A program made the position numbers and the translations under genes. This document shows, in pieces, positions 6,120 through 46,829 of a stretch of 64,000 bases of DNA. A model generated the notes under the pieces. That model did not search any database. It saw only the letters and a program-made list of their open reading frames with translations, and was not told where the DNA came from. This stretch comes from Mobula hypostoma (lineage: Eukaryota), in the NCBI RefSeq assembly GCF_963921235.1, contig NC_086108.1:1922001-1986000 (forward strand), written 5' to 3'. Each line of letters begins with the position of its first letter. The stretch's first letter is position 1.

Positions 6120-6664
6120 GACTCTTAGTGTGTCTAATGAAATAAGTAATATGGGGGAGTGCTGGGACAATACAGATTCAGACCAGTGTATCTGATTCTG
6201 TTGAACTGTGTCCTTTGTCCTCAGCACAGACATCACTCTGACAACCATGGGTCAACACAGCCTCCTTAAAGAGCAACACACACAGCAGAGGAGGCAACAG
6301 ACTGACACGTCAGAAAAACACGTCAGTCTGTGTTAAAGAGCAAGTCCAATTTACTGTTAGAATGCTGCATTGAAGGTTCAGGATTGTTTCTCATCTGTAG
6401 CGGATACTGGAAAACAGAAAAAACCACTGAGAGGCTGCACAAGAACATTTTGAGTGGAGTCTTAAAAGAACTGTGTCTGTTGCTAAAGCTTTGTGTCCTT
6501 GTGAACATCCTGTGTTTTTCCAATTAAAATTCCTAGTCTGCATAACTAAGAGTTATAGTTCTGGGCAGAATCCCTCATTAAAGTGAAAACACAGGGGCAC
6601 AAATGCGATGAATGTAGACGGATGAGCCACAAATCAAGAAAAAAAAGACATTATGAACTAACTC

Positions 6665-6927
6665 AGACACGAGGAAATCTGCAGATGCTGGAAACTCAAG
6701 CAGCACACACACAATGCTGGTGGAACACAGCAGGCCAGGCAGCATCTCTAGGAAGAGGTACAGTCGACATTTCGGACCAAGACCCTTCGTCAGGACTAAC
6801 TGAAAGAGGAGATAGTAACTCTTCTTTCAGTTAGTCCTGACGAAGGGTCTCAGCCCGAAACGTCGACTGTACCTCTTCCTATGGACGCTGCCTGGCCTGC
6901 TGCATTCCACCAGCATTGTGTGTGTGC
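6665..6927. mobile_element. Penelope-derived fold-back element (two inverted 3' termini), 14-bp TSD
   Basis: Arms are reverse complements centred near 6813 and match the terminus of the PLEs at 17960, 45600-45741 and 46830. TTATGAACTAACTC at 6651-6664 and 6928-6941. Confidence 0.9.
6833..6869 (+). ncRNA. Minimal type I hammerhead ribozyme motif
   Basis: AGTC-CTGACGA-A-GGG TCTCAG CCC-GAAA-CG-TC-GACT: conserved core CUGANGA/GAAA/UH, stem I AGTC:GACT, palindromic ACGT in place of stem III. Confidence 0.7.
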
Positions 6928-7479
6928 TTATGAACTAACTCCTTTGTTCTGCTAAGGACACACAAGTTGCTACGAGATATAAAGACAAGCTTTTCCCTTG
7001 TACCTCAGAGTTCCACACTCGTGGATTGTCTGTGATATCATGCTAAAATAAAAGATTCACTGCTCGCAGTCTGGTATCGAGCTTCATTTTAAAATTCCCT
7101 GACAAAGGGACCCGACTCTCTTTGATGTGTTTCCAAATAATAACTTTCCAAATTGAAAAAGGTTCGTCCTTTATTACAAAAGCAGTAAAGACAAACAATC
7201 TTGTAACGATAACAAAACAATGAAACTAAATTAGCGATGTAATGGTCTAATATTAGTTTGAATAGCATAACTAGGCCTTCTAATAGCATTCCAACTAGCA
7301 ATCTAGTTAATGTTCCAATGAAGTCCCAATTAGCAATCAACAAAAAAATGATCATTTCCCTGACTCACCCCCCCAACTAGACTAACCGACTAAGTATGAA
7401 AACATAATTGCTGTGTGCTCATTTGCTTCTTCCGCGCCCCAACCCACGTGACAGATTACGTAATAAATGCACTACAAAC

Positions 7480-8105
7480 TACAATACAGACAGAAAATAG
7501 GTACATGGTCCTGCATTGTCATTCATCAGTAGACAAGTGTAATGGAGAATGAAATGATTGTTACTCCGGATCTGATACACCATAAAGAAACACAATAAGA
7601 TAAAGAAAATAGTAAAAAAAAAACACAATAAATGTAAGTACGTAACATTATCTTGCAGCATAGACTGACGGTATGTCCATAAAGTGACGCTAGGCACAGG
7701 AGTGTCTGTACATGAGGTGACTGACAGGAAATGATAAAGTAGTGGTGGTTGGGGGTTGGATGGGTGGGTTAGTGGGTGGAGGTGTTGATCAGCCTTACTG
7801 CTTGATGAAAGTCATTGTTTTTGAGTCTGGTGGTCTGGCCCCATGAATTCTACACAGCCTCCTCCCTGTTGGGAGTGGGACAATCAGTCCCTGAACAGGA
7901 TGGGTGGCATCCTTCATGATATTGCTGGCTTTTTTCTGGCACCTTTCTGAATGTATGTCCTTGATAACAGGGAGGCTGGGGCCAGTGATGCATTGGACAG
8001 TTTAACTCTCTGTGGTAGAGCCCTCCTTTCACAGTATTGCAGCTTCCGTACCGCGCAGTGATGCAGCTTGCTAGGATGCTCTCAACTGCGCATCTGTAGA
8101 AGGTC
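7480..8105 (-). mobile_element. Rex1/Babar LINE 3' fragment
   Basis: ORF 7850-8107 TFYRCAVESILASCITARYG, typical of the Rex C-terminal domain. Confidence 0.7.
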
Positions 8106-8122
8106 AATGGTTCAATGCTTCC

Positions 8123-8411
8123 ATTTAATATCAGAGACTGTATCCAGTATACAGCCTGAAATTCTTACTCTTCACGGACAATTTAATATCAGAGACTGTA
8201 TCCAGTATACAGCCTGAAATTCTTACTCCTCACAGACAATTTAATATCAGAGACTGTATCCAGTATATAGCCTGAAATTCTTACTCTTCACGGACAATTT
8301 AATATCAGAGACTGTATATATTATACAGCCTGAAATTCTTATTCTTCACAGACAATTTAATATCAGAGACTGTATACAGTATGCCACCTGAAATTCATCT
8401 CTTCACAGACA
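8123..8411. repeat. 58-bp tandem repeat, 5 copies
   Basis: ATTTAATATCAGAGACTGTA... recurs at 8123, 8181, 8239, 8297, 8355. Confidence 0.95.
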
Positions 8412-9464
8412 TCCACAAAACAGAAAAAAAACAGAGAATGAATGACAGAAAATGTTAGAACCCCAAAGCCCCCTCCCTCCTCCAGTGCACAACAGTAGCA
8501 GAAGCACTGACCTCACCCCCTCCTCCTCCCCTCTTGCTCCAGCAAAAGCATCAGACCCCCCCACCACACGACAACAGCAAAGCCCCCCGAGACCATGATC
8601 TCGAGTCCATCAAAAACTACTGTCTATCCAACACTTCAACATCACAGACAGGCTCTCTCTCTCTCACTAACCTCTGTGAAGTCACCTCTCATCTTCCTGC
8701 AGGGAGAAAGAGAGATCACTCCTGCAACAGCTCGCTGTTTCGATGTTACAATCTGCCGTGCCACTTCCCCGAGTCCCCAGACTCGAGGACCGACAGGCCC
8801 TCACTCACCATCAAGAGAGAGGGAGGGAGAGAGTGATCGCTCCAGTGCAGGGGCTTTCCAAGAGCTGTGGACCCTGCCTGCTATCTCAATGTTTCAATTT
8901 CCCGCAATGCTTCAGTCAACTACATTGGCAAGGAACCGGGTCATCCACGGGGCTGCGCCCCAAAGGCGCACGTCTTCCATCTGCACCTGGAGAGAGCGAA
9001 ACGCCAGGCCACTCAGAGAGTCCCAGAGCCAGAACCATGTTGGAGCTGCAGCTGTAGATCGTGGACTCTGACAGGACCCCAGCCACTCGAAAGCAAAAGA
9101 GAGACACAGGAAGAGAAGAATTTAGTCATCTGGGTCTGTAAAAACTCCTAGAGCCATCTTTAACTCCTCCCATTCCTCCAATACACCACTCGTAAGTATT
9201 GATGTGCTAGTTCAGCTCTCTTTAACCTCCTCAGATACTGAAGCCACTGGTGAGACGATAAGAAAAAGATCTTTCATTTCTACAGTATACTTCATGAATC
9301 TTCAAAGTCCTGATGTGAATATTTTCATACAGACTGTGGATTTCTTCAAGGTGCCCACTACCTCTGTGTTTAAGCTGGATGGTGAGCTCCAATGTAGTAA
9401 TGTGATTATCAGGGTGATACTGACCACGTTATCTGTTACAGTTACAGGCTGAGGGTCCAGAGCT

Positions 9465-10150
9465 TCCCCTCAATATATGAGGATAGGTTGATCGAGCAAG
9501 GGCTTTTTTCTTTGGAGTGCAGGAAGATGAGAGGTGACTTCACAGAGGTGTATGTACAAGGTGATAAGAGGCATAGATCGAGCAGATAGCCAGAGACTTT
9601 TTCCCAGGGTGCCAATAGCTCATATTATGTTAAGTAACTTGCAAAGATCAAACGAATTCTAACAAAGACAGAGGAGTATGAAATGCAAGTCTAACTTCAT
9701 GTTTACTTTAAGCAAGGTACACACGTATCACATGGTTGCATAATGATGTATGCAGCTAACGTATTTATACATACAGTATAACCCACGATGAACAAGAAGG
9801 GTCAGACAACTAATATATATACAAAATTCCTCAAATGTTACAGAAATAATCTCTCACAGCTAATATCAGGGGTGATAATGATAAGGTGATTGGTGGAAAG
9901 TGCGGGGGGGATGTCAGAAATAGTTTTTTTTACACAGAGTGGTTGGTGTGTGGAACACACTGACAGGGTGGTGGTAGAGGGAGATACGTTAGGGACATTT
10001 AAGAGACTCTTGGGTAGGCAAGTAGATGATAGAAATCTGAAGGGCTCTGTGGGAGGGAAGGGTTAGATTGATGTGAGTGTAGGTTATAAGGTCAGCACCA
10101 CATCATGGGCTGAATGGCCTGTACTGCACCCTAGTGTTCTATGTTCTGTG
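9465..10150 (+). mobile_element. Old CR1 3' fragment interrupted by a ~230-bp insertion (about 9627-9857)
   Basis: CR1 3'-end motifs and TGTTCTA-type tail; AGCT(C/A)ATAT repeated either side of the insert. Confidence 0.65.
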
Positions 10151-10539
10151 TTTTACAGTACAGTGCTAATTTCATCCTTTACACAAACACAAGAGATTCT
10201 GCCGAGAGTGGAAAACAAAGGGCTGGAGGAACTCAGCAAGCAAGACAGCATCCATGGAGATGCAAAGGAGTTGACGCTTTGGACCAAGACACTCCATCAG
10301 GATTGGAAAGGAAGGGATCACAAGTTGTAGATTTGCCACTAGGAGTGCTACATCATTTTGTATATTTGGGAAGTACTCTCACACTCCCTTCAACGCCCAC
10401 CTACTGTTTCCCCATCTCCACTGCCTGCTGCACCCATTCATACACTCCTACAAACCAGCCAACAATCTACACTGTCCTTTCCTGTCAGATTCCACTGTCT
10501 GTGGCCCCCGTCACATCCACCTATCACCTCTCAGAATCG

Positions 10540-11210
10540 GTAACTATTCCCACTCTCCCTTCTCCATCAGATCACACCCCCTCACCTGGATCTACCCATC
10601 ACCCCCAGCTATTGTCACTATTGCCACTCTTTCTCCCTCTTTCAATCACTCCTCCTCTCCTGGACCCTCCCATCACCCCTCAGCCTCTGTCACTATTCCT
10701 ATTCTCCATTCTCCACGTGTCTATCACTCCTCCTAACCTGGATCCACCTATCACCTCCCAGACTCACCCTCCCTACCCCATCTGTCAATCAATCGCACTC
10801 TCCTGGATGCACCCATCACCTCTTAGCCCTTGTCACTATTCCCACACTCACTTCTGCGTCCGTATGTCACTTCTCCTCTCCTGTATCCACCCATCAACTT
10901 CCAGCCTCTGGCACTATTCCCACTCTCCCTTCTCCATGTCTCTATCACTCCTCCTCACCTGTATCATCCCACCACCTCCCAGCCTCTGTCACTATTCTTT
11001 GTCGTCCTTCTCCATCTGAGTATCACTCCTCCTCACCATGATCCACCATCTCCTCCCAACCTCTATCTCTATTCCCACTCTCCATTTCCATCTGCCTATC
11101 ACTCCTCCTCACCATGATCCACCATCTCCTCCCAGCCCCTGTCAATATTCCCAATCTCCCTTCTCCATGTCTATCACTGGCCCTCACCTGCATCCACCCA
11201 TCACCTCCTA
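10540..11210. repeat. Degenerate pyrimidine-rich tandem repeat (about 60-bp unit), probably from a PLE 3' region
   Basis: Recurring CTATCACTCCTCCTCACC-TGGATCCACCCATCACCTCCCAGCC...GTCACTATTCC. Confidence 0.6.
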
Positions 11211-11685
11211 CGTGTTGGCCTACTCCTTCTCTTCGCTCCCTTATATGAGCTATCTCCCCTCTACGTCTTCAATATTCGAAGTGCATTTATTATCACTGTA
11301 TACAAGCTTGATGTTCAGCTCCTTACAGGCATCATCTAAACATGGAAACACCATAGAACCCATTAAAATAAATAAGACTATCAAACACCCGATGTACAGA
11401 GAAAAATATATAATTGTACAAACGATACCAGTAACCAGGTATCATTCAGAACTGAAGTTGACAAAAGTAAGGCCACAGCTACCAAGCTAGATACCACTGC
11501 AGCCTGTCCTGGAGCCCGTTAGTTACAGGCCACGGCCTCAGTTCAGCGCAGAGACTAGTAAACCTCACAGTACCGTGAGCTGAACTGGCCCATTCCTCGC
11601 CTCTGGCCCCGTCACCCTGACCTTTTAAATCTAGCCTGGTGCTTAAATCGTTCAAACCTTTGGTCGTTCCGTGCTCTCAGGGCTG

Positions 11686-13206
11686 GACCCCACCGCCTCG
11701 ATTCACCTGTACCCAACCTTTCCAATTCAACATGCTCTGTGGCCTGGACCCTGCCGCCTCGATTCACCTGTACCCAACCTTTCCAATTCAACATGCTCTG
11801 TGGCCTGGACCCTGCTGCCTCGATTCAGCCTGTACCTGACTTTTCCAATTCAACATGCTCTGTGGCCTGGACCCTGCCGCCTCGATTCACCTGTACCCAA
11901 CTTTTCCAATTCAACATGCTCTGTGGCCTGGACCCTGCCGCCTCGATTCACCTGTTACCAACCTTTCCAATTCAACATGCTCTGTGGCCTGGACCCTGCT
12001 GCCTCGATTCAGCCTGTACCTGACTTTTCCAATTCAACATGCTCTGTGGCCTGGACCCTGCCGCCTCGATTCACCTGTTACCAACCTTTCCAATTCAACA
12101 TGCTCTGTGGCCTGGACCCTGCCGCCTCGATTCAGCCTGTACCTGACTTTTCCAATTCAACATGCTCTGTGGCCTGGACCCTGCCGCCTCGATTCACCTG
12201 TACCCAACCTTTCCAATTCAACATGCTCTGTGGCCTGGACCCTGCCGCCTCGATTCACCTGTTACCAACTTTTCCAATTCAACATGCTCTGTGGCCTGGA
12301 CCCTGCCGCCTCGATTCACCTGTACCCAACCTTTCCAATTCAACATGCTCTGTGGCCTGGACCCTGCCGCCTCGATTCAGCCTGTACCTGACTTTTCCAA
12401 TTCAACATGCTCTGTGGCCTGGACCCTGCTGCCTCGATTCAGCCTGTACCTGACTTTTCCAATTCAACATGCTCTGTGGCCTGGACCCTGCCGCCTCGAT
12501 TCACCTGTTACCAACCTTTCCAATTCAACATGCTCTGTGGCCTGGACCCTGCTGCCTCGATTCAGCCTGTACCTGACTTTTCCAATTCAACATGCTCTGT
12601 GGCCTGGACCCTGCTGCCTCGATTCAGCCTGTACCTGACTTTTCCAATTCAACATGCTCTGTGGCCTGGACCCTGCTGCCTCGATTCAGCCTGTACCTGA
12701 CTTTTCCAATTCAACATGCTCTGTGGCCTGGACCCTGCCGCCTCGATTCACCTGTTACCAACCTTTCCAATTCAACATGCTCTGTGGCCTGGACCCTGCT
12801 GCCTCGATTCAGCCTGTACCTGACTTTTCCAATTCAACATGCTCTGTGGCCTGGACCCTGCTGCCTCGATTCAGCCTGTACCTGACTTTTCCAATTCAAC
12901 ATGCTCTGTGGCCTGGACCCTGCCGCCTCGATTCACCTGTTACCAACCTTTCCAATTCAACATGCTCTGTGGCCTGGACCCTGCTGCCTCGATTCAGCCT
13001 GTACCTGACTTTTCCAATTCAACATGCTCTGTGGCCTGGACCCTGCTGCCTCGATTCAGCCTGTACCTGACTTTTCCAATTCAACATGCTCTGTGGCCTG
13101 GACCCTGCCGCCTCGATTCACCTGTTACCAACCTTTCCAATTCAACATGCTCTGTGGCCTGGACCCTGCCGCCTCGATTCAGCCTGTACCTGACTTTTCC
13201 AATTCA
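11686..13206. repeat. 61/62-bp minisatellite, about 25 units, with a higher-order 185-bp period
   Basis: Constant TTCCAATTCAACATGCTCTGTGGCCTGGACCCTG(C/T)GCCTCGATTCA plus three variant segments. Confidence 0.97.
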
Positions 13207-13334
13207 GCCTGGCACTTAAGTCGATGAAACCTCAGGTCTCTGCTCGCTCTTGGGCGCCGCATCACCTCATTTGTTCCACATCAAATTGCCTCCAAGGCCA
13301 AAGCAGCAATGACCAAACACTGCAACACAATAAA

Positions 13335-16300
13335 CATAGAAACATAGAAACATAGAAAACAGGTGCAGGAGTAGGCCATTCGGCCCTTCGAGCCTGCACC
13401 GCCATTTAATTATGATCATGGCTGATCATCCAACTCAGAACCCCGCCCCAGCCTTCCCTCCATACCCCCTGACCCCCATAGCCACAAGGGCCATATCTAA
13501 CTCCCTCTTAAATATAGCCAATGAACTGGCCTCAACAGTTTCCTGTGGCAGAGAATTCCACAGATTCACCACCCTCTGTGTGAAGAAGTTTTTCCTAATC
13601 TCGGTCCTAAAAGGCTTCCCCTCTATCCTCAAACTGTGACCCCTCGTTCTGGACTTCCCCAACATCGGGAACAATCTTCCTGCATCTAGCCTGTCCAATC
13701 CCTTTAGGATCTTATACGTTTCAATCAGATTCCCCCCTCAATCTTCTAAATTCCAACGAGTACAAGCCCAGTTCATCCAGTCTTTCTTCATATGAAAGTC
13801 CTGCCATCCCAGGAATCAATCTGGTGAACCTTCTTTGTACTCCCTCTATGGCAAGGATGTCTTTCCTCAGATTAGGGGACCAAAACTGCACACAATACTC
13901 CAGGTGTGGTCTCACCAAGGCCTTGTACAACTGCAGTAGTACCTCCCTGCTCCTGTACTCGAATCCTCTCGCTATAAATGCCAGCATACCATTCGCCTTT
14001 TTCACCGCCTGCTGTACCTGCATGCCCACTTTCAATGACTGGTGTATAATGACACCCAGGTCTCGTTGCACCTCCCCTTTTCCTAATCGGCCACCATTCA
14101 GATAATAATCTGTTTTTCTATTTTTGCCACCAAAGTGGATAACTTCACATTTATCCACATTAAATTGCATCTGCCATGAGTGTGCCCACTCACCCAACCT
14201 ATCCAAGTCACCCTGCATCCTCTTAGCATCCTCCTCACTGCTAACACTGCCACCCAGCTTCGTGTCATCCGCAAACTTGGAGATGCTGCATTTAATTCCC
14301 TCATCCAAGTCATTAATATATATTGTAAACAACTGGGGTCCCAGCACTGAGCCTTGCGGTACCCCACTAGTCACCGCCTGCCATTCTGAAAAGGTCCCGT
14401 TTATTCCCACTCTTTGCTTCCTGTCTGCTAACCAATTCTCCACCCACACCAATACCTTACCCCCAATACTGTGTGCTTTAAGTTTGCACACTAATCTCCT
14501 GTGTGGGACCTTGTCAAAAGCCTTTTGAAAATCCAAATATACCACATCCACTGGTTCTCCCCTATCCACTCTACTAGTTACATCCTCAAAAAATTCTATG
14601 AGATTCGTCAGACATGATTTTCCTTTCACAAATCCATGCTGACTTTGTCCGATCATTTCACCGCTTTCCAAATGTGCTGTTATCACATCCTTGATAACTG
14701 ACTCCAGCAGTTTCCCCACCACCGACGTTAGGCTAACCGGCCTATAATTCCCCGGTTTCTCTCTCCCTCCTTTTTTAAAAAGTGGGGTTACATTAGCCGC
14801 CCTCCAATCCTCAGGAACTAGTCCAGAATCTAACGAGTTTTGAAAAATTATCACTAATGCATCCACTATTTCTTGGGCTACTTCCTTAAGCACTCTAGGA
14901 TGCAGACCATCTGGCCCTGGGGATTTATCTGCCTTCAATCCCTTCAATTTACCTAACACCACTTCCCTACTAACATGTATTTCACTCAGTTCCTCCATCT
15001 CACTGGACCCTCTGTCCCGTACTATTTCTGGAAGATTATTTATGTCCTCCTTAGTGAAGACAGAACCAAAGTAATTATTCAATTGGTCTGCCATGTCCTT
15101 GCTCCCCATAATCAATTCACCTGTTTCTGTCTGCAGGGGACCTACATTTGTCTTTACCAGTCTTTTCCTTTTTACATATCTATAAAAGCTTTTACAGTCC
15201 GTTTTTATGTTCCCCGCCAGTTTTCTCTCATAATCTTTTTTCCCCTTCCTAATTAACCCCTTTGTCCTCCTCTGCTGAACTCTGAATTTCTCCCAGTCCT
15301 CAGGTGAGCCACTTTCTCTGGCTAATTTGTATGTTTCTTCTTTGGAATTGATACTATCCCTAATTTCTCTTGTCAGCCACGGGTGCACTACCTTCCTTGA
15401 TTTATTCTTTTGCCAAACTGGGATGAACAATTGTTTTTCATCCATGCAACCTTTAAATGCTTGCCATTGCATATCCACTGTCAATCCTTTAGGTGTCATT
15501 TGCCAGTCTATCTTAGCTAATTCACGTCTCATACCTTCAAAGTTACCCCTCTTTAAGTTCAGAACCTTTGTTTCTGAATTAACTATGTCACTCTCCATAT
15601 TAATGAAGAATTCCACCATATTATGGTCACTCTTACCCAAGGGGCCTCTCACGACAAGATCGCTAATTAACCCTTCCTCATTGCTCAAAACCCAGTCCAG
15701 AATAGCCTGCTCTCTAGTCGGTTCCTCGACTTGTTGGTTCAAAAAACCATCCCGCATACATTCCAAGAAATCCTCTTCCTCAGCACCTTTACCAATTTGG
15801 TTCACCCAGTCTACATGTAGATTGAAGTCACCCATTATAACTGCTGTTCCTTTATTGCACACATTTCTAATTTCCTGTTTAATACCATCTCCGACCTCAC
15901 TACTACTGTTAGGTGGCCTGTACAGAACTCCCACCAGCGTTTTCTGCCCCTTAGTGTTACGCAGCTCTACCCATATCGATTCCACATCTTCCCGGCTTAT
16001 GTCCTTCCTTTCTATTGCGTTAATCTCTTCTTTAACCAGCAACACCACCCCACCTCCCCTTCCTTCATGTCTATCCCTCCTGAATATTGAATATCCCTGA
16101 ACGTTGAGCTCCCATCCCTGGTCACCCTGGAGCCATGTCTCTGTGATCCCAACTATATCATAATCATTAATAACAAGCTGCACTTTCAATTCATCCACCT
16201 TATTACGAATGCTCCTTGCATTGACACACAAAGCCTTCAGGCGTTCTTTTACAACTCTTTTAGCCCTTGTAGAATTATGTTGAAAAGTGGCCCTTTTTAA

Positions 16301-16347
16301 TGCTTGCCCTGGATTTGTCGGCCTGCCACTTTTACTTTTCTCCTTTG
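13335..16347 (-). mobile_element. Young 5'-truncated CR1 LINE with near-intact ORF2 (APE endonuclease + RT)
   Basis: ORF 13721-16513: NARSIRNK, GITETWL, MGDFN, SDH (APE); YRPVSLTS, GVPQGSVLGP, FADD (RT). One extra base near 13730 shifts the C-terminus into ORF 13435-13698. (TTTCTATG)n tail at 13335-13358. Confidence 0.95.
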
Positions 16348-16558
16348 TAAAATGCTGGTGAACACAGCAGGCCAGGCAGCAATGACCAAACACTGCAACA
16401 CAATAAAATGCTGGTGAACACAGCAGGCCAGGCAGCAATGACCAAACACTGCAACACAATAAAATGCTGGTGAACACAGCAGGCCAGGCAGCAATGACCA
16501 AACACTGCAACACAATAAAATGCTGGTGAACACAGCAGGCCAGGCAGCAATGACCAAA
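16348..16558. repeat. 56-bp tandem repeat (about 3.7 copies), chimera of PLE terminus and flank
   Basis: AATGCTGGTGAACACAGCAGGCCAGGCAGC + AATGACCAAACACTGCAACACAATAA at 16351, 16407, 16463, 16519. Confidence 0.9.
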
Positions 16559-16570
16559 TAAATTGCCAGG

Positions 16571-16610
16571 ACAGTCCTGATGAAGGGTCTCGGCCCGAAA
16601 CGTCGACTGT
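16571..16610 (+). ncRNA. Minimal type I hammerhead ribozyme motif in a PLE terminus
   Basis: ACAGTC-CTGATGA-A-GGGT CTCG GCCC-GAAA-CG-TC-GACTGT; 6-bp stem I; predicted cleavage after C16604. Confidence 0.8.
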
Positions 16611-17049
16611 ACCTCTTCCTACAGACGCTGCCTGGCCTGCTGCGTTTACCAGGATTTTGTGTGTGTTGCTTAAACTTCCAGCATCTGCAGATTTTCTCGT
16701 GTTTGCATGACCAGACGCTGGCTCATTTCCCACTCCCATGGTACTTGGCCAGAATTCGAGTGTCTCTTTCCCTCCACAGATGCTGCCTGACCTGTTGAGA
16801 TCCTCTGGTATTTTGTCTGTTTCTACGTGTAATAGTTGTTTTGTATTGTCTGATTTTTCCAAAAGAATATGTGATTCCTAAAGTGCACTGTGATGTGTGA
16901 TCTGTATCAGCTGCTGCCCTGTCGGTATGTGTGAGTGACTGGGAATTCGGAGTGTTTACTGGTGTTGTTGCTGCTGTTTGTGTTCGATGCCTCAATATTC
17001 CGTTTCATATCAGGGCATACAATATAAACTGAAACACTTACAGCCAAGA

Positions 17050-17850: not shown

Positions 17851-17959
17851 CCGTTCAAAGCAGTTATTCAAATACTGCAGTATTCTTTATCGTCATGTGG
17901 TGGCGCCACTGTCACACATTGTCTCCATCCCTTGAACGAGGTCAGTGCATCATTGCTCC

Positions 17960-19896
17960 ATACATCAAAGTTGCTGGTGAACGCAGCAGGCCAGGCAGCA
18001 TCTATAGGAAGAGGTGCAGTCGACGTTTCAGGCCGAGACCCTTCGTCAGGACTAACTGAAGGAAGAGTGAGTAAGGGATTTGAAAGTTGGAGGGGGAGGG
18101 GGAGATGCAAAATGATAGGAGAAGACAGGAGGAGGAGGGATAGAGCCGAGAGCTGGACAGGTGATAGGCAAAAGGGGATACGAGAGGATCATGGGACAGG
18201 AGGTCCGGGAAGAAAGACGGGGGGGGGTGACCCAGAGGATGGGCAAGAGGTATATTCAGAGGGACAGAGGGAGAAAAAGGAGAGTGAGAGAAAGAATGTG
18301 TGCATAAAAAAGAGTAACAGCTGGGGTACGAGGGGGAGGTGGGGCCTAGCGGAAGTTAGAGAAGTCAGTGTTCATGCCATCAGGTTGGAGGCTACCCAGA
18401 CGGAATACAAGGTGTTGTTCCTCCAACCTGAGTGTGGCTTCATCTTTACAGTAGAGGAGGCCGTGGATAGACATGTCAGAATGGGAATGGGATGTGGAAT
18501 TAAAATGTGTGGCCACTGGGAGATCCTGCTTTCTCTGGCGGACAGAGCGTAGATGTTCAGCAAAGCGGTCTCCCAGTCTGCGTCGGGTCTCACCAATATA
18601 TAAAAGGCCACATCGGGAGCACCGGACACAGTATATCACCCCAGTCGACTCACAGGTGAAGTGATGCCTCACCTGGAAGGACTGTTTGGGGCCCTGAATG
18701 GTGGTAAGGGAGGAAGTGTAAGGGCATGTGTAGCACTTGTTCCGCTTACACGGATAAGTGCCAGGAGGGAGATCAGTGGGGAGGGATGGGGGGGACGAAT
18801 GGACAAGGGAGTTGTGTAGGGAGCGATCCCTGCGGAATGCAGAGAGAGGCGGGGAGGGAAAGATGTGCTTAGTGGTGGGATCCCGTTGGAGGTGGTGGAA
18901 GTTACGGAGAATAATATGTTGGACCCGGAGGCTGGTGGGGTGGTAGGTGAGGACCAGGGGAATCCTATTCCTAGTGGGGTGGTGGGAGGATGGAGTGAGA
19001 GCAGATGTACGTGAAATGGGGGAGATGCGTTTAAGAGCAGAGTTGATAGTGGAGGAAGGGAAGCCCCTTTCTTTAAAAAATGAAGACATCTCCCTCGTCC
19101 TAGAATGAAAAGCCTCATCCTGAGAGCAGATGCGGCGGAGACGGAGGAATTGCGAGAAGGGGATGGCGTTTTTGCAAGAGATAGGGTGAGAAGAGGAATA
19201 GTCCAGATAGTTGTGAGAGTCAGTAGGCTTATAGTAGACATCAGTGGATAAGCTGTCTCCAGAGACAGAGACAGAAAGATCTAGAAAGGGGAGGGAGGTG
19301 TCAGAAATGGACCAGGTAAACTTGAGGGCAGGGTGAAAGTTGGAGGCAAAGTTAATAAAGTTAACGAGTTCTGCATGCGTGCAGGAAGCAGCGCCAATGC
19401 AGTCGTCGATGTAGCGAAGGAAAAGTGGGGGACAGATACCAGAATAGGCACGGAACATAGATTGTTCCACAAACCCAACAAAAAGGCAGGCATAGCTAGG
19501 ACCCATACGGGTGCCCATAGCTACACCTTTAGTTTGGAGGAAATGGGAGGAGCAAAAGGAGAAATTATTAAGAGTAAGGACTAATTCTGCTAGACGGAGC
19601 AGAGTGGTGGTAGAGGGGAACTGATTAGGTCTGGAATCCAAAAAGAAGCGTAGAGCTTTGAGACCTTCCTGATGGGGGATGGAAGTATATAAGGACTGGA
19701 CATCCATGGTGAAAATAAAGCGGTGGGGGCCAGGGAACTTAAAATCATCGAAAAGTTTAAGAGCGTGAGAAGTGTCACGAACATAGGTCGGAAGGGATTG
19801 AACAAGGGGTGATAAAACAGTGTCGAGGTATGCAGAAACGAGTACGACAACAATTGTCTCAGCTTGCTCCTGCCCCACCGAACTCGTTTCTGCATA
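17960..19896 (-). mobile_element. Penelope-like element (Neptune-type), 5'-truncated: RT + GIY-YIG endonuclease, hammerhead motif at 18018-18053
   Basis: ORF 18346-19926: MDVQSLYTSIP, GVAMGTRMGPSYA, RYIDD, Cys-rich linker PCKRNKCYTC, VIYCVRCSRCGLLYIGET. The first ~28 aa of the listed ORF come from the inverted segment and flank. Confidence 0.93.
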
Positions 19897-20285
19897 GTAC
19901 AACACAGTACAGGCCCTTCGGCCCACAATGTTGCGCCGACTCTCAAACCCTGCCTCCCATATAAGCCCCCACCTTAAATTCCTCCATATACCTGTCTAGT
20001 AGTCTCACTGAGAGTCCGAGAGTCATAGAAAAGTACAGCACAGAACGGGACCTTCAGCCCATCTAGTCTGTGCAGAACCATTTAAACTGCCTACTCCCAT
20101 CGATTTGCACCAGGCGCATAACCTTCCATGTATCTATTCAAACTCCTCTTAAACGTTGAAATCGAACTTACATGCACCACTTGTGCTGGCAACTCGTTCC
20201 ACACTCTCACCACCCTTTGAGTGAATAAATTTCCCCCCATGTTCCCCTTAAACCTATCACCTTTCACCTTTAACTCATGGACCAC
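19897..20285 (-). mobile_element. Two short CR1 3'-end fragments
   Basis: Reverse complements of CR1 3' UTR (GTGGGCCGAAGGGCCTGTACTGTG) and FTQRVVRVWNELP. Confidence 0.65.
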
Positions 20286-35407: not shown

Positions 35408-36284
35408 AGACTGTTGGCAGTGTGGAGGATCAGAGGAATCTTGGGGTCCGAGTCCATAGGACACTCAAAGCAGCTGCGCAGGTTGACTCTGTGGTTAAAA
35501 AGCATACGGTGTATTGGCCTTCATCAGTCGTGGAATTGAATTTAGGAGCTGAGAGGTAATGTTGCAGCTATATAGGACCCTGGTCAGATCCCACTTGGAG
35601 TACTGTGCTCAGTTCTGGTCGCCTCACTACGGGAAGGATGTGGAAACCATAGAAAGGGTGCAGAGGAGATTTACAAGGATGTTGCCTGGATTGGGGAGCA
35701 TGCCTTATGAGAATAGGTTGAGTGAACTCAGCCTTTTCTCCTTGGAGCGACAGAGGATGAGAGGTGACCTGATAGAGGTGTATAAGATGATGAGAGGCAT
35801 TGATCATGTGGATAGTCAGAGGCTTTTTCCCAGGTCTGAAATGGTTGCCACAAGAGGACACAGGTTTAAGGTGCTGGGGAGTAGGTACAGAGGAGATGTC
35901 AGGGGTAAGTTTTTTACTCAGAGTGGTGAGTGTGTGGAATGGGCTGCCGGTGATGGTGGTGGAGGTGGATACAATAGGGTCTTTTAAGAGACATTTAGAT
36001 AGGTACATGGAGCTTAGTAAAATAGAGGGCTATAGGTAAGCCTAGTAATTTCTAAGGTGGGGGCATGTTCGGCACAGCTTTGTGGGCAAAGGGCCTGTAT
36101 TGTGCTGTAGGCTTTCTATGTTTCTATGTGTGTGAGGGGTGGATAAGGAGGTTCTGTTTATCTATCTATCTATTTATTTATTTATCATTTAGTGAGATAC
36201 AGTGTAGAATAGGCCCTTCTGGCCGTTCATGCCTTGCCACCCAGCAAATGCCCTGTTTAATCATAGCCAAGTCACAGGATGATT

Positions 36285-36538
36285 GGGTACAGAGAAGACG
36301 TCAGGGGTAAGATTTTTACTCAGAGAGTGGTGAGTGTGTGGAATGGGCTGCCGATGACGGTGGTGGAGGCGGATACAATAGGGTCTTTTAAGAGACTCCT
36401 GGACAGGTATATGAAGATCAGTAAAATAGACGGCTATGGGTAACCCTAGGTAATTTCTCAGGTAAGGACATGTTCAGCACAGCATTGTGGGCCGAAGGGC
36501 CTGTATTGTGCTGTAGGATTTCTGTGTTTCTGTTTCTG
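36285..36538 (+). mobile_element. Short CR1 3' end inserted in an HE1-like SINE
   Basis: Closely matches 35884-36126; SINE halves at about 36170-36280 and 36541-36720. Confidence 0.75.
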
Positions 36539-38254: not shown

Positions 38255-38900
38255 GTTATTTCAATTCATAATTCAAGTCAGAATAACTGATGCCAAGATT
38301 AAGGCAGGCATTTTTATTGGTCCACAAATCAAACAGGTCATTAATGACAGGCAATTTGAAGAACTTCTTGTGGGACTGGAGAAAATCACATGGAAGGCAT
38401 TCAAGGATGTTGTTGAACATTTTCTTGGCAGCTACAGAGCACCAAACTACGTGCAGCTGACAACATGCTTCAAGCACACAAAACCATGAAGTGCAACATG
38501 TCACTAAAGATTCATTTTCTGAATTCCAATTTAGACTTCTTCCCTGCAAATCTTGGCGTTGTCAGTGACGAGCACGGTGAAAGGTTTCACCAGGACATTG
38601 CGGTCATGGAGAAACGGTCTCAGGGCAACTGGAATCCATCAGTGCTGGCTGATTATTGTTGGACACTTAAACAAGAAGCCTCAGACACTGAGTACAAATG
38701 AAAATCATCAACAAAACATTGTTAGCTGAGTTGACTATTGCAAAGCGTCAGCACTGTTATGCAATTAAACACATTATATTCAATAAAAGTTAATTTCTTG
38801 TTTCTCCAAAACTCCTATGTGATACAAGTAGTCTGAAATTATATTTGTGTTCAGCTTCAAGCAGTCTATCATAAACAAAAAATAATTTCAAGGAACCAAC
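38255..38900 (+). mobile_element. Chapaev3-like (CMC) DNA transposase C-terminal fragment
   Basis: AKIKAGIFIGPQIK...WKAFKDVVEHFLG and MSLKIHFLNSNLDFFPANLGVVSDEHGERFHQDIAVMEKR..GNW...LADYCW, split by a frameshift near 38460. Confidence 0.7.
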
Positions 38901-39074
38901 GTTAGTGTCCCTCACCAGGGAAACCCCCCCTCAATCGGGCCATCCTAATTGGGTGGCACACAATCCTCCAATCTCTTATCTTCAACAGTAACCCAATCAA
39001 GCAGCTTGCAGAGAACAGCACAAACGATCACACACGGAACAGCATAACAGTAAAAAAAAAAGAACCAGAACATT

Positions 39075-39535
39075 ACACTTATAACTCAAGTCCTCCAGAC
39101 CCAGCAACATCCTTGTAAATTTACTCTACACTTTCAATCTTATTTACATTTTTCCTGTAGGTAGGTGACCAAAACTCCACACAATACTCCAGATTAGATC
39201 TCACCAATGTCTTATACAACATCAGCATAACATCCCATACATCCCATCTCCTGTACTCAGTGCTTTGATTTATGAAGGCCAACGTGCCAAAAGCTTTCTT
39301 TACAACCCTATCTACCTGTGATGCCACTTTCAAGGAACTATAGATCTGTATTCCCAGATCCCTCTGTTCTACCACATTCCTCAGTGCTACCACTTTCCAT
39401 GTAAGTCCTACCCTCATTTGGTCCCGCCAAAGTGCAACACCTCAAACACTTGTCTGCATTAAACTCCACCTGCCAATTTTGCATCTGGTCCAGATCCAGA
39501 TGCAAGCTCTGACCGTCTTCCTCACTGTCCACAGG
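39075..39535 (-). mobile_element. CR1 RT C-terminal fragment
   Basis: EQRDLGIQIYSSLKVASQVDRVVKKAFG, VRSNLEYCVEFWSP. Confidence 0.8.
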
Positions 39536-39559
39536 TTTGCTGATTCAGTTTACAAATGT

Positions 39560-40170
39560 TTATCAAAAGTCAGGAGGTTATGTTCCAACTTTATAAAACT
39601 CTGGTTTGGTCACATCTGGAGTATTGCACACAGTTCTGGTCACCCCACTATAGGAAGGATGTCGAGGCTTTACAGAGGGTGCAGAAGAGGTTTACCAGGA
39701 TGCTGTCTGGTTTTGAGGGCATGTGCTATCACGAGAGACTGGATAAACTTGGGTTGTTTTCTCTGGAGTGTCGGAGGCTGAGGGGAGATCTGAATGAGGT
39801 TTACAAGATTATGAGAGGCAGATCAAGTGGACAGAGAGTATCTGTTTCCCAGGGTAGAAAGGTCTAATACTAAAGGGCATGCATTGAAGATGGGGGTGGG
39901 GTAGGTTGAAGGGGGATGTGAGGGGTAAGTTTTTTACTCAAAGAGTGGTGGATGTCTGGAATGTGCTGCCTGGTCTGGTGGTAGAGGCAAATACATTAGA
40001 GGTTTTTAAGAGACGTTTGGATAGGCACGTGGATGTGAGGAAGATGGAAGGATGTGGACATGGTGTAGGGAGGAAGAATTCATGTTTGGGTGTTTTTGAT
40101 TTGCTTTTTAGCTGGTTCAGCACAACACTGTGGGCCGAATGGCCTGTTCCTGAGCTGTACTCTTCTATGT
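39560..40170 (+). mobile_element. CR1 3' fragment
   Basis: LYKTLVWSHLEYCTQFWSPHYRKD, RGKFFTQRVV, 3' UTR. Confidence 0.8.
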
Positions 40171-42264
40171 TTGCAAACTACAGTTTCCGTGGTAAAATTC
40201 TTGATTGTCAGTTCTCCACCTTCATTTACTTGGACATATTTTATTATTTACTACTGAACTTAAACTGCTGCAGTTTCTTATCCAAATGTTTACCTCCTGT
40301 TAAATGTAAACAGACACCATCAAAACACTCCCTGGATAGCAGCACCCTCCCTGCGGGGTGTCCCAAGTGACTCAGCTGATAATGAGAAGAATTTAAAACA
40401 ATTAACTTTGAGGGAATGTCCTGGGTTGCATTCTGCACGCTGGCCTGAGTCACCATTTGTGAAATGGGAAACTGATTGTGCTTTGCATTTTTGCACGCTG
40501 AGTCCCTGGGGGTTGTACACAGGAATAGGAATGTACACGTAAACCGGCCGTGCCTGGGCATGACCAGAGGCCAGGAGGAAGCCAATTCTAACAGGGGCTG
40601 GGCTGACCAACCCCACCATTGCTGGAGAGTGTGGAGGTTACAGACTCATACAGCACAGAAACTGGCCCTTTGGCCCAAATGGTCCATGCTGACTTACATT
40701 CAGAGTCAGGTTTAATATCACTGAACTGACACACAAAATGCTGGGGGAGCTCAGCATCGATGGAGAGAAATAGACAGTTGACTGGATCAGATTTGGGCCG
40801 AGACCCTTCATCATCATCATCTAAGTTAGTCTTATTTGCTCGCATTTGGTCCATATCCCTCTCAAGTTGAGCCATGGACCAAAACCATAAAGCAAGGAGT
40901 TGATGGGCCCAAGGTTGGGCACCCCTGCTCCAAACCTTCCCGATCCATATGTCTGCCTCAGCCAGCTCATTCCAAATACACACCGCTCTCTGGGTGAACA
41001 AATCTCTCCCTAATCACCTTTAAACCTGTGAGCTCCAGTTCTTGATTCCAGGCCTGGGGTAAAGACTGTGTGCTTTCACCCTTAGTGGTTTTATACACCT
41101 TCAGAGATGCACACCTCTGAATCCTATGCTCCAAGGAAAACGGTCCCAACCTGCTCAAGAAAACCCTCTTCAGCACACAGCTGGGTTTTTAATTTTGTTA
41201 AAGCTGGTGGTGGTAATGGGGATAAGCTCCCACTACCTACTAAATGCTCCCAATGACGTGCACCTCAAATAGCCTCTGACAACCAGCTCCTGGCCTTCAC
41301 GTGAGCCCGACAGAACCATTTCTACTGACGAGGGGTGTTACTGGCACTTTAAAACCAGTCACTTCGGGCAGATGGGGCTCATCAGCCGTGGTTGCCAGCT
41401 CAACCAGGAAAAGGAAAACTGACTGGCAACTCCTGCGACACCGCTCGTGCCAAGCTGTTCTGGTCTCTACTGTTCCTTTGGGTTCACCAGCTGTGTGGAG
41501 AAGGGGAGTTTGCTATGTGGGCAACAGCTTGCTCTCCATATCGAACTGCCCTGGCTTGTGTATCTAGACAGTTAGGATGCAACGTCCGTGGTCGACCCTG
41601 ACTGATGTAGGCCTTTGAGTTCCAACAACATTAAAAAAAGAAAAATTAATATTGACCATTGTTACAAAAACCACAAGGTTCAACAACAGCTTCTTCCCTA
41701 CCACCATCGGGTCTTGCACTGATCTGCAAACAAGTCCTGATGAAGGGTCTCAGCCCAAAATACCGGCTGTTTAGTTCTTTCCATAGATGCTACCCAAGCT
41801 AATGAGCTCCTCCAGCATTTTGTGTATGTTACTGTAAGGAGAAGTTAAATGTGATTCCTCCCTGGTACATGCTAAAATGCAATGGAAGTCTGTAAGGTGA
41901 AGTGCTGTTCGCCTGGAGTGGGATTGTTCGGAGAAAGTACACAGGAACCAATCCGCAGCAATGTTTTGAGAAAGTTAAGGGAGTTCAAGTCTATAGCCAT
42001 AACAGTGGAAAATGGTGCAATTCATGTTTTTTCACCGCAAGGCAAGGTCTTTGTGCAGGAGCAGGTACCAACTGCATGGAAAAGTACCAGTGTAAGGGGT
42101 TTTAAGAGGTAGAATTGGGGACCTCCTTGTTGCAAGAGAAGAGAGTTTTGTCCAAGGCTAGGTCACAGCTTGTGACTAGTGCTATGATAAGGAACAGTAC
42201 ATCGAAGAGAGTCAGAGTACATCGAATTGGAGTTAGACGGACTTGGAGAGAGGAGAGGCTGCGT

Positions 42265-42790
42265 GTATATTAAACAGTTAAATTATATAATTGGTGCAAA
42301 AAGTTAGTGAGGTAGTGTTCATGGTTCAGTGTCCATTCAGAAATCAGAGGGGAAGGAGCCGTTGAGTGTGTGTCTTCAGGCTCCTGTACCTCCTCCCTGA
42401 TGGTAACGGTGAGAGCAAGCCGTGACCTGGGTGGTGAGGGTGCTTAACGATGGACACCACCTTGCTAAGGCATGAGTCCTCGAAGGTCCTCGTGATGGAG
42501 CTGACTGAGTTCACAACCCTCTGCAGCTTACTTCAATCCTGTGCAGTAGCCCCCCACCCCCCCACCGCCATACCAGATGGTGATGCAGCCAGGGAGAATG
42601 CTCTGTGGACGTTTTTGAGTGCTGATAAAATATAGCTGCCGTGGCCTCCTTTATAACTGCATCGATATGGTGCGCCCAGGATACGTCCTCAGAAACAGCG
42701 AAACCCAGGAAGCTGCAACTACTCACTCTCTCCACTTCTGATCCCTCAATCAGGGACATCTCTGTTGGCATTCTCGAGGTCAGCTCACTT
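42265..42790 (-). mobile_element. Degenerate Rex1/Babar fragment
   Basis: IEGSEVERVSS..FLGFAVSEDVSWAHH; similar to 21515-23120. Confidence 0.6.
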
Positions 42791-42851
42791 AGACCATGAT
42801 GAGTATTATTTTCATTTCTGTACTGCTACTATTTACTACTGTAGAGATTTA

Positions 42852-43092
42852 AGCAACACACATCAAAGTTGCTGGTGAACGCAGCAGGCCAGGCAGCATC
42901 TCTAGGAAGAGGCACAGTCGACGTTTCAGGCCGAGACCCTTCGAAGGTCTGAATGAGTCCCGATGAAGGGTCTCGGCCCGAAACGATGACTGTACCTCTT
43001 CCTAGAGATGCTGCCTGGCCTGCTGCGTTCACCAGCAACTTTGATGTGTGTTGCTTGAAATTCCAACATCTGCAGAATTCCTGTTGTTTGCG
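42852..43092. mobile_element. Penelope-derived fold-back element, 14-bp TSD (1 mismatch)
   Basis: Inverted arms centred near 42950; ACTGTAGAGATTTA (42838-42851) and ACCGTAGAGATTTA (43093-43106). Confidence 0.88.
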
Positions 43093-43180
43093 ACCGTAGA
43101 GATTTATTTTATTTTAGTGTTGTATTTGTGCTAGTTCTATTAAAGAGTATTCTTGTGGCCTTGAACACATGTGTCATCTC

Positions 43181-45741
43181 AAGCAACACACATCAAAGTT
43201 GCTGGTGAACGCAGCAGGCCAAGCAGCATCTCTAGGAAGAGGTACAGTCAACGTTTCGGGCCGAGACCCTTCATCGGGACTAACTGAAGGAAGAGTGAGT
43301 AAGGGATTTGAAAGCTGGAGGGGGAGGGGGAGATGCAAAATGATAGGAGAAGACAGGAGGGGGAGGGATAGAGCCGAGAGCTGGACAGGTGATAGGCAAA
43401 AGGGGATACGAGAGGATCATGGGACAGGAGGTCCGGGAAGAAAGATGGGGGGGGGTGGTGACCCAGAGGATGGGCAAGAGGTATATTCAGAGGGACAGAG
43501 GGAGAAAAAGGAGAGTGAGAGAAAGAATGTGTGCATAAAAATGAGTAACAGATGGGGTACAAGGGGGAGGTGGGGCATTAGCGGAAGTTAGAGAAGTCAA
43601 TGTTCATGCCATCAGGTTGGAGGCTACCCAGACGGAATATAAGGTGTTGTTCCTCCAACCTGAGTGTGGCTTCATCTTTACAGTAGAGGAGGCCGTGGAT
43701 AGACATGTCAGAATGGGAATGGGATGTGGAATTAAAATGTGTGGCAACTGGGAGATTCTGCTTTCTCTGGCGGACAGAGCGTAGATATTCAGCAAAGCGG
43801 TCTCCCAGTCTGCGTCGGGTCTCACCAATATATAAAAGGCCACATCGGGAGCACCGGACGCAGTATATCACCCCAGTCGACTCACAGGTGAAGTGATGCC
43901 TCACCTGGAAGGACTGTTTGGGGCCCTGAATGGTGGTGAGGGAGGAAGTGTAAGGGCATGTGTAGCACTTGTTCCGCTTACACGGATAAGTGCCAGGAGG
44001 GAGATCAGTGGGGAGGGATGGGGGGGACGAATGGACAAGGGAGTTGTGTAGGGAGCGATCCCTGCGGAATGCAGAGAGAGGGGGGGAGGGAAAGATGTGC
44101 TTAGTGGTGGGATCCCGTTGGAGGTGGCGGAAGTTACGGAGAATAATATGTTGGACCCGGAGGCTGGTGGGGTGGTAGGTGAGGACCAGGGGAACCCTAT
44201 TCCTAGTGGGGTGGCGGGAGGATGGAGTGAGAGCAGATGTACGTGAAATGGGGGAGATGCGTTTAAGAGCAGAGTTGATAGTGGAGGAAGGGAAGCCCCT
44301 TTCTTTAAAAAATGAAGACATCTCCCTCGTCCTAGAATGAAAAGCCTCATCCTGAGAGCAGATGCGGCGGAGACGGAGGAATTGCGAGAAGGGGATGGCG
44401 TTTTTGCAAGAGACAGGGTGAGAAGAGGAATAGTGACTCTCACAGCTATCTGGACTATTCCTCTTCTCACCCTATCTCTTGCAAAAACGCCATCCCCTTC
44501 TCGCAATTCCTCCGTCTCCGCCGCATCTGCTCTCAGGATGAGGCTTTTCATTCTAGGACGAGGGAGATGTCTTCATTTTTTAAAGAAAGGGGCTTCCCTT
44601 CCTCCACTATCAACTCTGCTCTTAAACGCATCTCCCCCATTTCACGTACATCTGCTCTCACTCCATCCTCCCACCACCCCACTAGGAATAGGGTTCCCCT
44701 GGTCCTCACCTACCACCCCACCAGCCTCCGGGTCCAACATATTATTCTCTGTAACTTCCGCCACCTCCAACGGGATCCCACCACTAAGCACATCTTTCCC
44801 TCCCCCCCTCTCTCTGCATTCCGCAGGGATCGCTCCCTACACAACTCCCTTGTCCATTCGTCCCCCCCATCCCTCCCCACTGATCTCCCTCCTGGCACTT
44901 ATCCATGTAAGCGGAACAAGTGCTACACATGCCCTTACACTTCCTCCCTTACCACCATTCAGGGCCCCAAACAGTCCTTCCAGGTGAGGCATCACTTCAC
45001 CTGTGAGTCGACTGGGGTGATATACTGCGTCCGGTGCTCCCAATGTGGCCTTTTATATATTGGTGAGACCCGACGCAGACTGGGAGACTGCTTTGCTGAA
45101 CATCTACGCTCTGTCCGCCAGAGAAAGCAGAATCTCCCAGTGGCCACACATTTTAATTCCACATCCCATTCCCATTCTGACATGTCTATCCACGGCCTCC
45201 TCTACTGTAAAGATGAAGCCACACTCAGGTTGGAGGAACAACACCTTATATTCCGTCTGGGTAGCCTCCAACCTGATGGCATGAACATTGACTTCTCTAA
45301 CTTCCGCTAGGCCCCACCTCCCCCTCGTACCCCATCTGTTACTCTTTTTTATGCACACATTCTTTCTCTCACTCTCCTTTTTCTCCCTCTGTCCCTCTGA
45401 ATATACCTCTTGCTCATCCTCTGGGTCACCCCCCACCCCCCCATCTTTCTTCCCGGACCTCCTGTCCCATGATCCTCTCGTATCCCCTTTTGCCTATCAC
45501 CTGTCCAGCTCTTGGCTCTATCCCTCCCCCTCCTGTCTTCTCCTATCATTCTGGATCTCCCCCTCCCCCTCCCACTTTCAAATCCCTTACTCACTCTTCC
45601 TTCAGTTAGTCCTGACGAAGGGTCTCGGCCTGAAACGTCGACTGCGCCTCTTCCTAGAGATGCTGCCTGGCCTGCTGCGTTCACCAGCAACTTTGATGTG
45701 TGTTGCTTGAATTTCCAGCATCTGCAGAATTCCTGTTGTTT
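43181..45741. mobile_element. 2.56-kb fold-back Penelope insertion (two inverted copies of the GIY-YIG/3' half), 14-bp TSD
   Basis: ORFs 43578-44321(-) and 44567-45310(+) are near-identical 247-aa products; symmetry centre about 44433-44452; ACATGTGTCATCTC at 43167-43180 and 45742-45755. Confidence 0.95.
45608..45643 (+). ncRNA. Minimal hammerhead ribozyme motif in PLE 3' terminus
   Basis: AGTC-CTGACGA-AGG GTCTCGG CCT-GAAA-CG-TC-GACT. The same motif lies on the minus strand at 18018-18053 and 46931-46966. Confidence 0.75.
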
Positions 45742-46829
45742 ACATGTGTCATCTCCCTTTGTTTGCGAATATTTGGGAGAAAACCCTGAAATGAACCAGG
45801 AAAGAACACATGGTGAATTTTTAAATCATTTTTGTTTACAGTTACATTATTGTGGAATGCATCTCTGTGATCTAGTGTTGTTGTATTTATTCTGTTGTGT
45901 AACTTTTGTTAATGTAGGTTTATATTTGTAATGTGCTGTTGCTGCTGCAGAAAAGCTCATTAACATGCCGTTTATACCTTGGCGATAAACTTGTACTTGA
46001 AATGTAGCCAGTTCACCAATAAATTCTGCAACTAAAATATTTTAACGTTGGTCCCTTGTTCCTTTCTGATTCATCACCAAGAGGTTTCCACAAACAAAGG
46101 AGGCACTGTACACATGGAAAATGCTGTAAGAAATCACTTTAATAGTTATATAAAGAATGTAGAAAGAAAGAGAGTTAATAATGTTAAAAGATAAAATTAT
46201 ACTATCAACCAGTTCCCTAAGCCACTACACACAATGACCTGCCAGACGGAACTGCAGATGCCAACAGGTTTTCTACACACTTTCTCTCTCTCTGCCTCTC
46301 TCTCCCCTCTTTCTTTCCCTCTCTCTCCCCTCTTTCTTTCCCTCTCTCTCTTCCCCCTCCCTCTTTTTCTGTCTCTCGGTCTCTCCTCTCTCACTCACTC
46401 TCTTTCTCTCTGCCTGTCTGTCTCTCAGTCTCTCGAAGTCCTTATTGCCAGCTCTTACCATTAGTCACAATCCTGCCTAAAGGAAGATAACCCCTTGTAC
46501 AAAGAAATCGCCCCTTTTTATACCCTCCAATACCGTTTTCTCGAATCCTTTTCCAGACAAATACAATTGTCACCATTATCTACTCTCAAGGCTGTACACT
46601 GGCACTCACTCTCAGTTCTCTGAACAAGGCTGAGGTCTGGTTCCCTTGTACTTTCTCAAAACATTCCCACGTCCCAGACTAACACCAATTTGTCTAACAA
46701 CTTCCATTTTGTGTTACACATTTTCACATTTGACCATATTCCAAAGAGGAGTCGAATTTAACTCTTTCCTTACAAATGCGCAACAGGTCAGGCAGCAACT
46801 CTGGAAAGAAAGCCAACATCTCGATACAT

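Follow-up and report, generated by a model that had tools for sequence, protein, structure and literature searches.

A 64,000-nt stretch of the Mobula hypostoma genome (NC_086108.1, positions 1,922,001-1,986,000, forward strand; called the window here, with all coordinates counted from its first letter) contains a series of insertions of a Penelope-like element (PLE), designated el1 to el6, several of which consist of two 5'-truncated arms in inverted orientation. The coding evidence for the element comes from el6, whose open reading frame (ORF) at 18346-19830 contains a reverse transcriptase (RT) domain and then a C-terminal GIY-YIG endonuclease in one ORF. The Pfam matches to these domains are weak, both of them (RVT_1, E = 4.6e-5; GIY-YIG, E = 4.3e-4) scoring too low to pass the curated cut-offs. 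The linker between the domains reads C361-x4-C366-x2-C369 (CX4CxxC), and of the CCHH residues of the endonuclease, C404, C407, and H448 are invariant and H426 and H442 nearly so, with the CxxC lying inside the VIY...YIG motif. There were 1000 protein relatives at E <= 1e-30, the best named of which are from Mobula (88-93%) and Hypanus (78-87%). A CX2-5CxxC linker is typical of Neptune and Nematis, and the CCHH definition is found in the same source (Craig et al., 2021, PMC8557442). By these definitions the element is, as judged from its predicted protein, an endonuclease-bearing (EN+) PLE of the Neptune/Nematis type, and the PLE origin proposed in an earlier note on this DNA was borne out by the RT, the GIY-YIG domain with its CCHH residues, and the linker.

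The terminus of the element carries a predicted ribozyme, as a descriptor scan for the minimal type I hammerhead gave eight matches of which six retain the core; an Rfam scan at the gathering threshold gave none. As in the minimal hammerheads described from metazoan PLEs and from non-LTR retrozymes (Cervera and de la Pena, 2014, PMC4209133; Li et al., 2026, 10.64898/2026.07.22.740005), there is an unpaired base before stem II and positions 15.2-16.2 are palindromic. Folding of the terminus was not significant (z-scores -0.78 to 0.53). A profile of the terminus had 31 matches in the window and none in five shuffles, and it matched every one of the older, degenerate relatives listed in the earlier note; a search of viral contigs and metagenome contigs with the terminus pattern produced no match. 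The PLE family is very abundant, with 360,700 contigs of one run aligning to a 2.5-kb stretch which also contains other repeats. Both the inverted 5'-truncated copy and the 30-40-bp tail of EN+ PLEs are present, and there is no full-length copy with direct pseudo-long terminal repeats (pLTRs; a partial tandem) within the window.

Two-armed insertions and their junctions

The earlier note had described three insertions, each within a 14-bp target site duplication (TSD), each with inverted arms, and each with the full tail on one arm and an early end to the other, and all of this was found for el1, el2, and el3 (Table 1). Their repeats end at 14 bp, with no extension possible on either side. Among random pairs of sequence windows (3000 trials each at 0, 1, and 2 mismatches), repeats of at least 14 bp occurred 1, 0, and 3 times, respectively. 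A fourth two-armed copy, el4, which was not in the earlier note, also has a 14-bp TSD and is interrupted by a long interspersed nuclear element (LINE). The arm without the tail falls short of the tail end by 38, 37, 33, and 38 nt in el1, el2, el3, and el4, and at the junction of this arm the end of the target is identical to the next base or bases of the element over 1, 1, 2, and 1 nt, respectively. No microsatellite bias was seen at the four target sites, and no credible TSD was found in the three old candidate pairs tested (0/3). We ruled out an assembly artefact, as the arms diverge by 2-10% and TSDs are present. One contig of run X1, which may be the source sample, crosses the left junction of el2 without differences. 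The remaining copies, both young, are el5, which has only one arm, and el6 (17959-19897), which has lost its second end and has no TSD.

Table 1. Components of the PLE insertions el1 to el6 in the window.
Feature	Coordinates	Strand	Description
el1 TSD	6651-6664 / 6928-6941		exact 14/14; insert 263 bp
el1 tailed arm	6665-6817	-	PLE 3' end, antisense; minimal hammerhead degenerate
el1 tail-less arm	6815-6927	+	38 nt short; minimal hammerhead motif intact
el4 TSD	13309-13322 / 16707-16720		12/14, two transitions
el4 tail-less arm, start	13323-13334	-	then interrupted by later LINE; resumes at 16350
later LINE within el4	13335-16349	-	CR1-type, recognised from translation
el4 tandem	16350-16549	-	three identical 56-bp units, then a fourth arm piece
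el4 centre	16550-16571	.	pieces of own left flank (TSD start; 13283-13290)
el4 tailed arm	16572-16706	+	minimal hammerhead motif intact
el6 tail-less arm	17959-19844	-	5'-truncated; carries longest ORF piece, 18346-19830
el6 centre and mirror-arm stub (15 nt)	19845-19897	+	unique centre; LINE end adjoins
el2 TSD	42838-42851 / 43093-43106		13/14, one transition; insert 241 bp
el2 tail-less arm	42852-42943	-	37 nt short; truncated within hammerhead
el2 centre	42944-42954	.	7-nt self-copy (fold-back signature) and a few additional bases
el2 tailed arm	42955-43092	+	hammerhead core and cleavage triplet both changed
el3 TSD	43167-43180 / 45742-45755		exact 14/14; insert 2561 bp
el3 tail-less arm	43181-44434	-	endonuclease-coding end and 3' untranslated region (UTR); 33 nt short
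el3 tailed arm	44435-45741	+	about 20 nt further 5' than mirror arm; intact minimal hammerhead motif near 45606-45645
el5	46820-47825	-	single-armed, tailed, 5'-truncated; span includes the short direct repeat, element itself 46830-47815

The arms meet differently in each copy. Those of el1 overlap by about 3 nt, with the turn at a natural imperfect palindrome, and those of el3 are joined directly, with a 1-nt overlap and a 20-nt asymmetry. The short arm of el4 runs for 40 nt and then passes back into the target just upstream of the TSD via a 6-nt microhomology; its 56-bp unit is made up of these 40 nt of tail-less arm, local flank, and TSD, and contains no hammerhead. The content of this tandem can only be local, and as its growth needs a double-stranded template it probably took place after insertion. 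In effect, a PLE insertion has given rise at 16350-16549 to a small satellite array that started at the junction of TSD and arm. A turn at the ribozyme cut was considered and rejected, as the arms end 24-52 nt upstream of the cut.

Two observations concern the placement of the copies. Only 60 bp separate el2 from el3, the two have in common a tail variant that is absent from el1, el4, and el5, and their arms match cross-wise, which suggests insertion in one episode or local conversion. The young copies el5 and el4 lie in or beside older PLE termini (46779-46829 and 16740-16820, respectively), which hints that the element may be targeted to the vicinity of its own repeats.

Length of the duplication in the window and in distant relatives

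For comparison we used 90 distant relatives (79 loci on metagenome contigs and 11 on genome contigs, mostly at 40-60% protein identity), which had been chosen for a long ORF match. Seven of these have an inverted terminal pair with both flanks and could be tested for a TSD; L006, in which the left flank is absent, was excluded. Three loci on metagenome contigs, L007, L040, and L043, have exact TSDs of 16, 13, and 13 bp, against a background of 1/300, with the tail on one arm only and offsets of 58, 55, and 64 nt, respectively. Identity of 1-2 nt at the tail-less junction was seen in all three, as in 4/4 copies in the window. All seven credible two-armed TSDs found here lie within 13-16 bp, in families that share only about 50% protein identity.

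The preferred stagger near 14 nt that the earlier note had postulated is therefore supported, both by the four two-armed copies in the window and by the 13, 13, and 16 bp of the distant relatives. A strictly constant 14 bp is not, given these same relatives and the direct repeat of el5, which is 7 bp if exact and 10 bp with one CpG-type mismatch. A fair statement is that PLEs of the Neptune/Nematis type have a narrow peak near 14 bp, which likely records the spacing of the enzyme's cuts on the two strands. Duplications of L1 and Alu also peak near 15 bp, and with a 3' stagger of 13-15 nt the two nicks are separated by one helical turn and lie on the same face of the DNA. A length of 14 bp is for these reasons unsurprising, yet consistent with two coupled active sites. 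It might be argued that the four values of 14 came up by chance in a small sample from a broad distribution, without any particular geometry of the nicks, and the 7-10 bp of el5 and the TSDs of 8, 9, and 10 bp of rotifer PLEs (Arkhipova et al., 2013, PMC3846280) would fit such a distribution; we consider this improbable, as it leaves unaccounted for the confinement of all seven credible two-armed TSDs to 13-16 bp in such divergent families.

Our literature search found neither a 14-bp mode for PLE TSDs nor a description from sharks or rays, although older key papers and Repbase/Dfam were outside the search, and absence from print is not established by it. For PLEs in general, TSD length is called variable, and the available part of the account gives no clade-specific mode, in contrast to the values near 14 bp here (Craig et al., 2021, PMC8557442). 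The spacing of the nicks is likewise not reported in the available text on PAc, the Poseidon element of Anolis (Frangieh et al., 2024, PMC11167929).

Several other features were noted in the contigs of the relatives. L037:3032-3463 is a hairpin of 406 bp that resembles the PLE pairs in its exact 13-bp TSD and in a 47-nt extension on one side; its arms are tRNA-derived (ARAGORN: tRNA-Thr at 3118-3191), no hammerhead was found in it, and it may represent a tRNA-derived short interspersed nuclear element mobilised by PLE machinery. At L040:367-373 and L043:5618-5625, TTAGGG-like letters open the tailed arm directly after the TSD and may belong to the tail of the family. L048:5601-5721 contains a perfect-looking palindrome of about 100 bp with a 12-bp flanking repeat (one mismatch), in which no hammerhead was found. 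The PLE-type ORF matches of L080-L090 are in contigs titled as bacterial or archaeal metagenome-assembled genomes and are probably animal DNA binned there.

Probable assembly from two ends and the templates of the arms

We think it highly probable that the two-armed copies are 5'-truncated, head-to-head EN+ PLE insertions, each assembled de novo at its landing site from both ends. In this scheme the nicks that the enzyme makes on the two strands would be about 14 nt from each other, and the duplication, with both ends extended, points to 14-nt 3' overhangs. Both 3' ends would serve as primers for reverse transcription, each at its own start site, and the arms would then read outward from the overhangs as cDNA, one per start site. 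The tail-less end would be primed internally with 1-2 bp of pairing: the 1-2 nt identity at every tail-less junction suggests that the primer pairs at the internal site, and this would explain the jitter of 33-38 nt. The two short cDNAs would be joined centrally, by fold-back or by repair synthesis with templated inserts. The centre of el4 matches its own flank over 9 nt in register after the 6-nt microhomology (P ~0.02) and over a further 8 nt (P ~0.03), and that of el6 does so over 8 nt (P ~0.04). Should the second end not be primed, the outcome would be one arm only, inside a duplication shortened by trimming. In the repeat of el5 the missing bases are those at the tip of the unprimed overhang, and in this one case the shortening fits trimming before the end-join.

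The stereotyped second end of the earlier note is supported, lying 33-38 nt short of the tail end, and an explanation for it as a second start site is already in print (Frangieh et al., 2024, PMC11167929). According to that work both strands are cut and extended by PAc in vitro, a dimer is predicted, the hammerhead lies in the pLTR, and there are two internal RT start sites, the gap between which equals the tail. The Mobula pairs differ from PAc, which belongs to another clade, in having one tail per insertion and 1-2 nt of identity, whereas for PAc it is reported that the start site does not differ from one strand to the other and that homology is not relied upon. Both start sites lie on the 3' side of small predicted stems in our element, which we do not use as support.

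As to the templates, the arms of el3 have 26 differences at 1253 sites, about as many as each has against the separate copy el6 (27 and 22 of 1244). Allele depths were taken from contigs of four runs aligned to 41900-44430, and at 43335 and 43315 the el3 arms carry alternative alleles which are both common in the family (the other allele makes up 72% and 65% of X1 depth). Moreover, the tailed arm of el2 differs from the tail-less arm of el3 at only 2/101 positions, and the tail-less arm of el2 from the tailed arm of el3 at 1/92, compared with 5/92 and 7/101 between the arms within el2 and within el3. These el3 differences, the two alleles, and the cross-wise matches favor two RNA templates. 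Near the centre, by contrast, the copying of one cDNA is favored, on the basis of matched arm ends (the 5' end-points differ by about 2, 9, 20, and 1 nt in el1, el2, el3, and el6) and of an allele at 43757 that is carried by both arms of el3 and found in at most 5% of family depth in the four runs. The two could be reconciled if the first cDNA were to fold back and copy itself, which would set the matched lengths of the arms, and if the outer part of the other arm were to come from a second cDNA, made on a different RNA, that pairs with the fold-back copy. Provided that assembly is de novo and two-ended, we would put such hybrid use of templates at a little under an even chance. In the outer 400 nt of el3 the arms differ at 17/403 sites, vs. 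9/830 elsewhere (P = 0.001).

A simpler possibility is that one template suffices: only the tailed end would be primed for RT, the cDNA would fold back, the tail-less end would be its join to the second DNA end, and the differences between arms would be due to mutation and gene conversion. Self-priming is preferred for inverted junctions by Arkhipova et al. (2013, PMC3846280), the 5' end-points are matched in 4/5 pairs, the rare allele at 43757 is common to both el3 arms, and the near identity of the el2 tailed and el3 tail-less arms, which are 88 bp apart, is what conversion would give. We nevertheless regard pure fold-back as unlikely, as it leaves unexplained why the second end always falls 33-38 nt short, which is where in vitro work has placed a second start site (Frangieh et al., 2024, PMC11167929), and as conversion by el2 could not have reached the family-wide alleles at 43315 and 43335.

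Several points weigh against two-ended assembly at a narrow stagger, or against the hybrid use of templates. There are only four two-armed copies in the window, and four of the seven testable distant pairs (L001, L013, L019, and L056) have no repeat of at least 13 bp. No empty-site joint was among the 15 joints listed (there were 3259 others) from the contigs aligned to 41900-44430, and the centre of el2 has no significant match to its own flank. The arms of el4 are not matched in length, being about 50 nt apart, and in L007, L040, and L043 one arm is far longer than the other. The excess of outer differences in el3 is partly present in the comparisons with el6 (P = 0.012 and 0.10) and may only reflect a variable UTR, the hybrid detail depends on one rare allele, and later gene conversion could imitate two templates.

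Short hairpins, described PLEs, and implications for PLE integration

The suggestion in the earlier note that hairpins of about 250 bp are units in their own right, similar to miniature inverted-repeat transposable elements (MITEs) or to retrozymes, was not borne out. Shared spacers, which had been named as the sign of replication as a unit, were looked for, and at the scale of the window the centres of el1, el2, and el4 have nothing in common; el1 and el2, with 13-16 differences in about 90 nt, belong to different subfamilies. Nor did we find in the window the many near-identical copies with a common interior that characterize MITEs, or symmetric terminal inverted repeats, the ends differing by 33-38 nt. 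In non-LTR retrozymes the units follow one another head to tail and each carries a ribozyme (Li et al., 2026, 10.64898/2026.07.22.740005), whereas the Mobula copies are arranged head-to-head and neither arm of el2 has an intact minimal hammerhead. The contigs on 41900-44430 revealed many different joints, none of them dominant among those listed.

That such hairpins are transcribed and re-inserted whole as non-autonomous units thus appears very improbable to us: the similar sizes of el1 and el2 (263 and 241 bp), the minimal hammerhead motifs in el1 and el4, and a joint (42939->43061) that two organisms each show in one contig, at a depth above that of a single copy, which makes a few multi-copy hairpins possible, are outweighed by centres that all differ and in el4 are derived from the locus, by the separate subfamilies and the lack of an intact ribozyme in el2, by a spread of sizes between about 240 bp and 2.56 kb with ends that follow one rule, and by the absence, in what is admittedly a blunt test with contigs, of a dominant listed joint or of any site where many molecules begin or end. 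At window scale, then, the short hairpins are not units and were most likely built afresh at each landing site, and in annotation they should be filed as PLE insertion products rather than as MITEs.

The window also contains tandem arrays at 11644-13236, 55703-56177, and 59595-60600, with periods of about 62 bp and about 95 bp and a long GT-rich microsatellite. Ankyrin-repeat exons at 57585-58022 and 61891-62319, recognised from their translations, resemble those of a host gene of the IkappaB family.

An inverted truncated copy, a one-sided tail, and a single TSD have already been described for PLEs (Arkhipova et al., 2013, PMC3846280; Craig et al., 2021, PMC8557442). PLEs in general are 5'-truncated, with an adjacent inverted 5'-truncated copy and a 30-40-bp tail that in many cases is confined to one end (Craig et al., 2021, PMC8557442), as is the case here. 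Closest in form is Pen2a_Av of Adineta vaga (Arkhipova et al., 2013, PMC3846280), which has an inverted terminal copy, one TSD around the unit, microhomology joins, and a 31-bp tail on one inverted repeat, the inverted pLTR being 37 bp shorter, the same pattern as in Mobula. It differs in its clade, which is Perere-related, and in its TSDs of 8-10 bp vs. 14, and the available part of the account has neither a series of minimal hairpins nor an analysis of templates of the kind given here. As the architecture is already published, the increment provided by our observations is modest.

How PLE integration is completed is stated to be open (Craig et al., 2021, PMC8557442; Frangieh et al., 2024, PMC11167929), and the 13-16-bp duplication, the single tail per insertion, and the arms of apparently mixed template provide numbers that can be tested directly in vitro. 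We tentatively propose, as a possibility for which the odds are somewhat unfavorable, that PLEs of the Neptune type have a two-headed complex of fixed geometry which is conserved across families with only about 50% protein identity. Such a complex would nick 13-16 nt apart, its two start sites, distal and internal, would be obligatorily split between the ends with 1-2 bp of pairing at the internal one, and two RNAs would be bridged by fold-back of the first cDNA. If this is true, the course of PLE second-strand synthesis in vivo could be read from the thousands of two-armed insertions that ray genomes contain.

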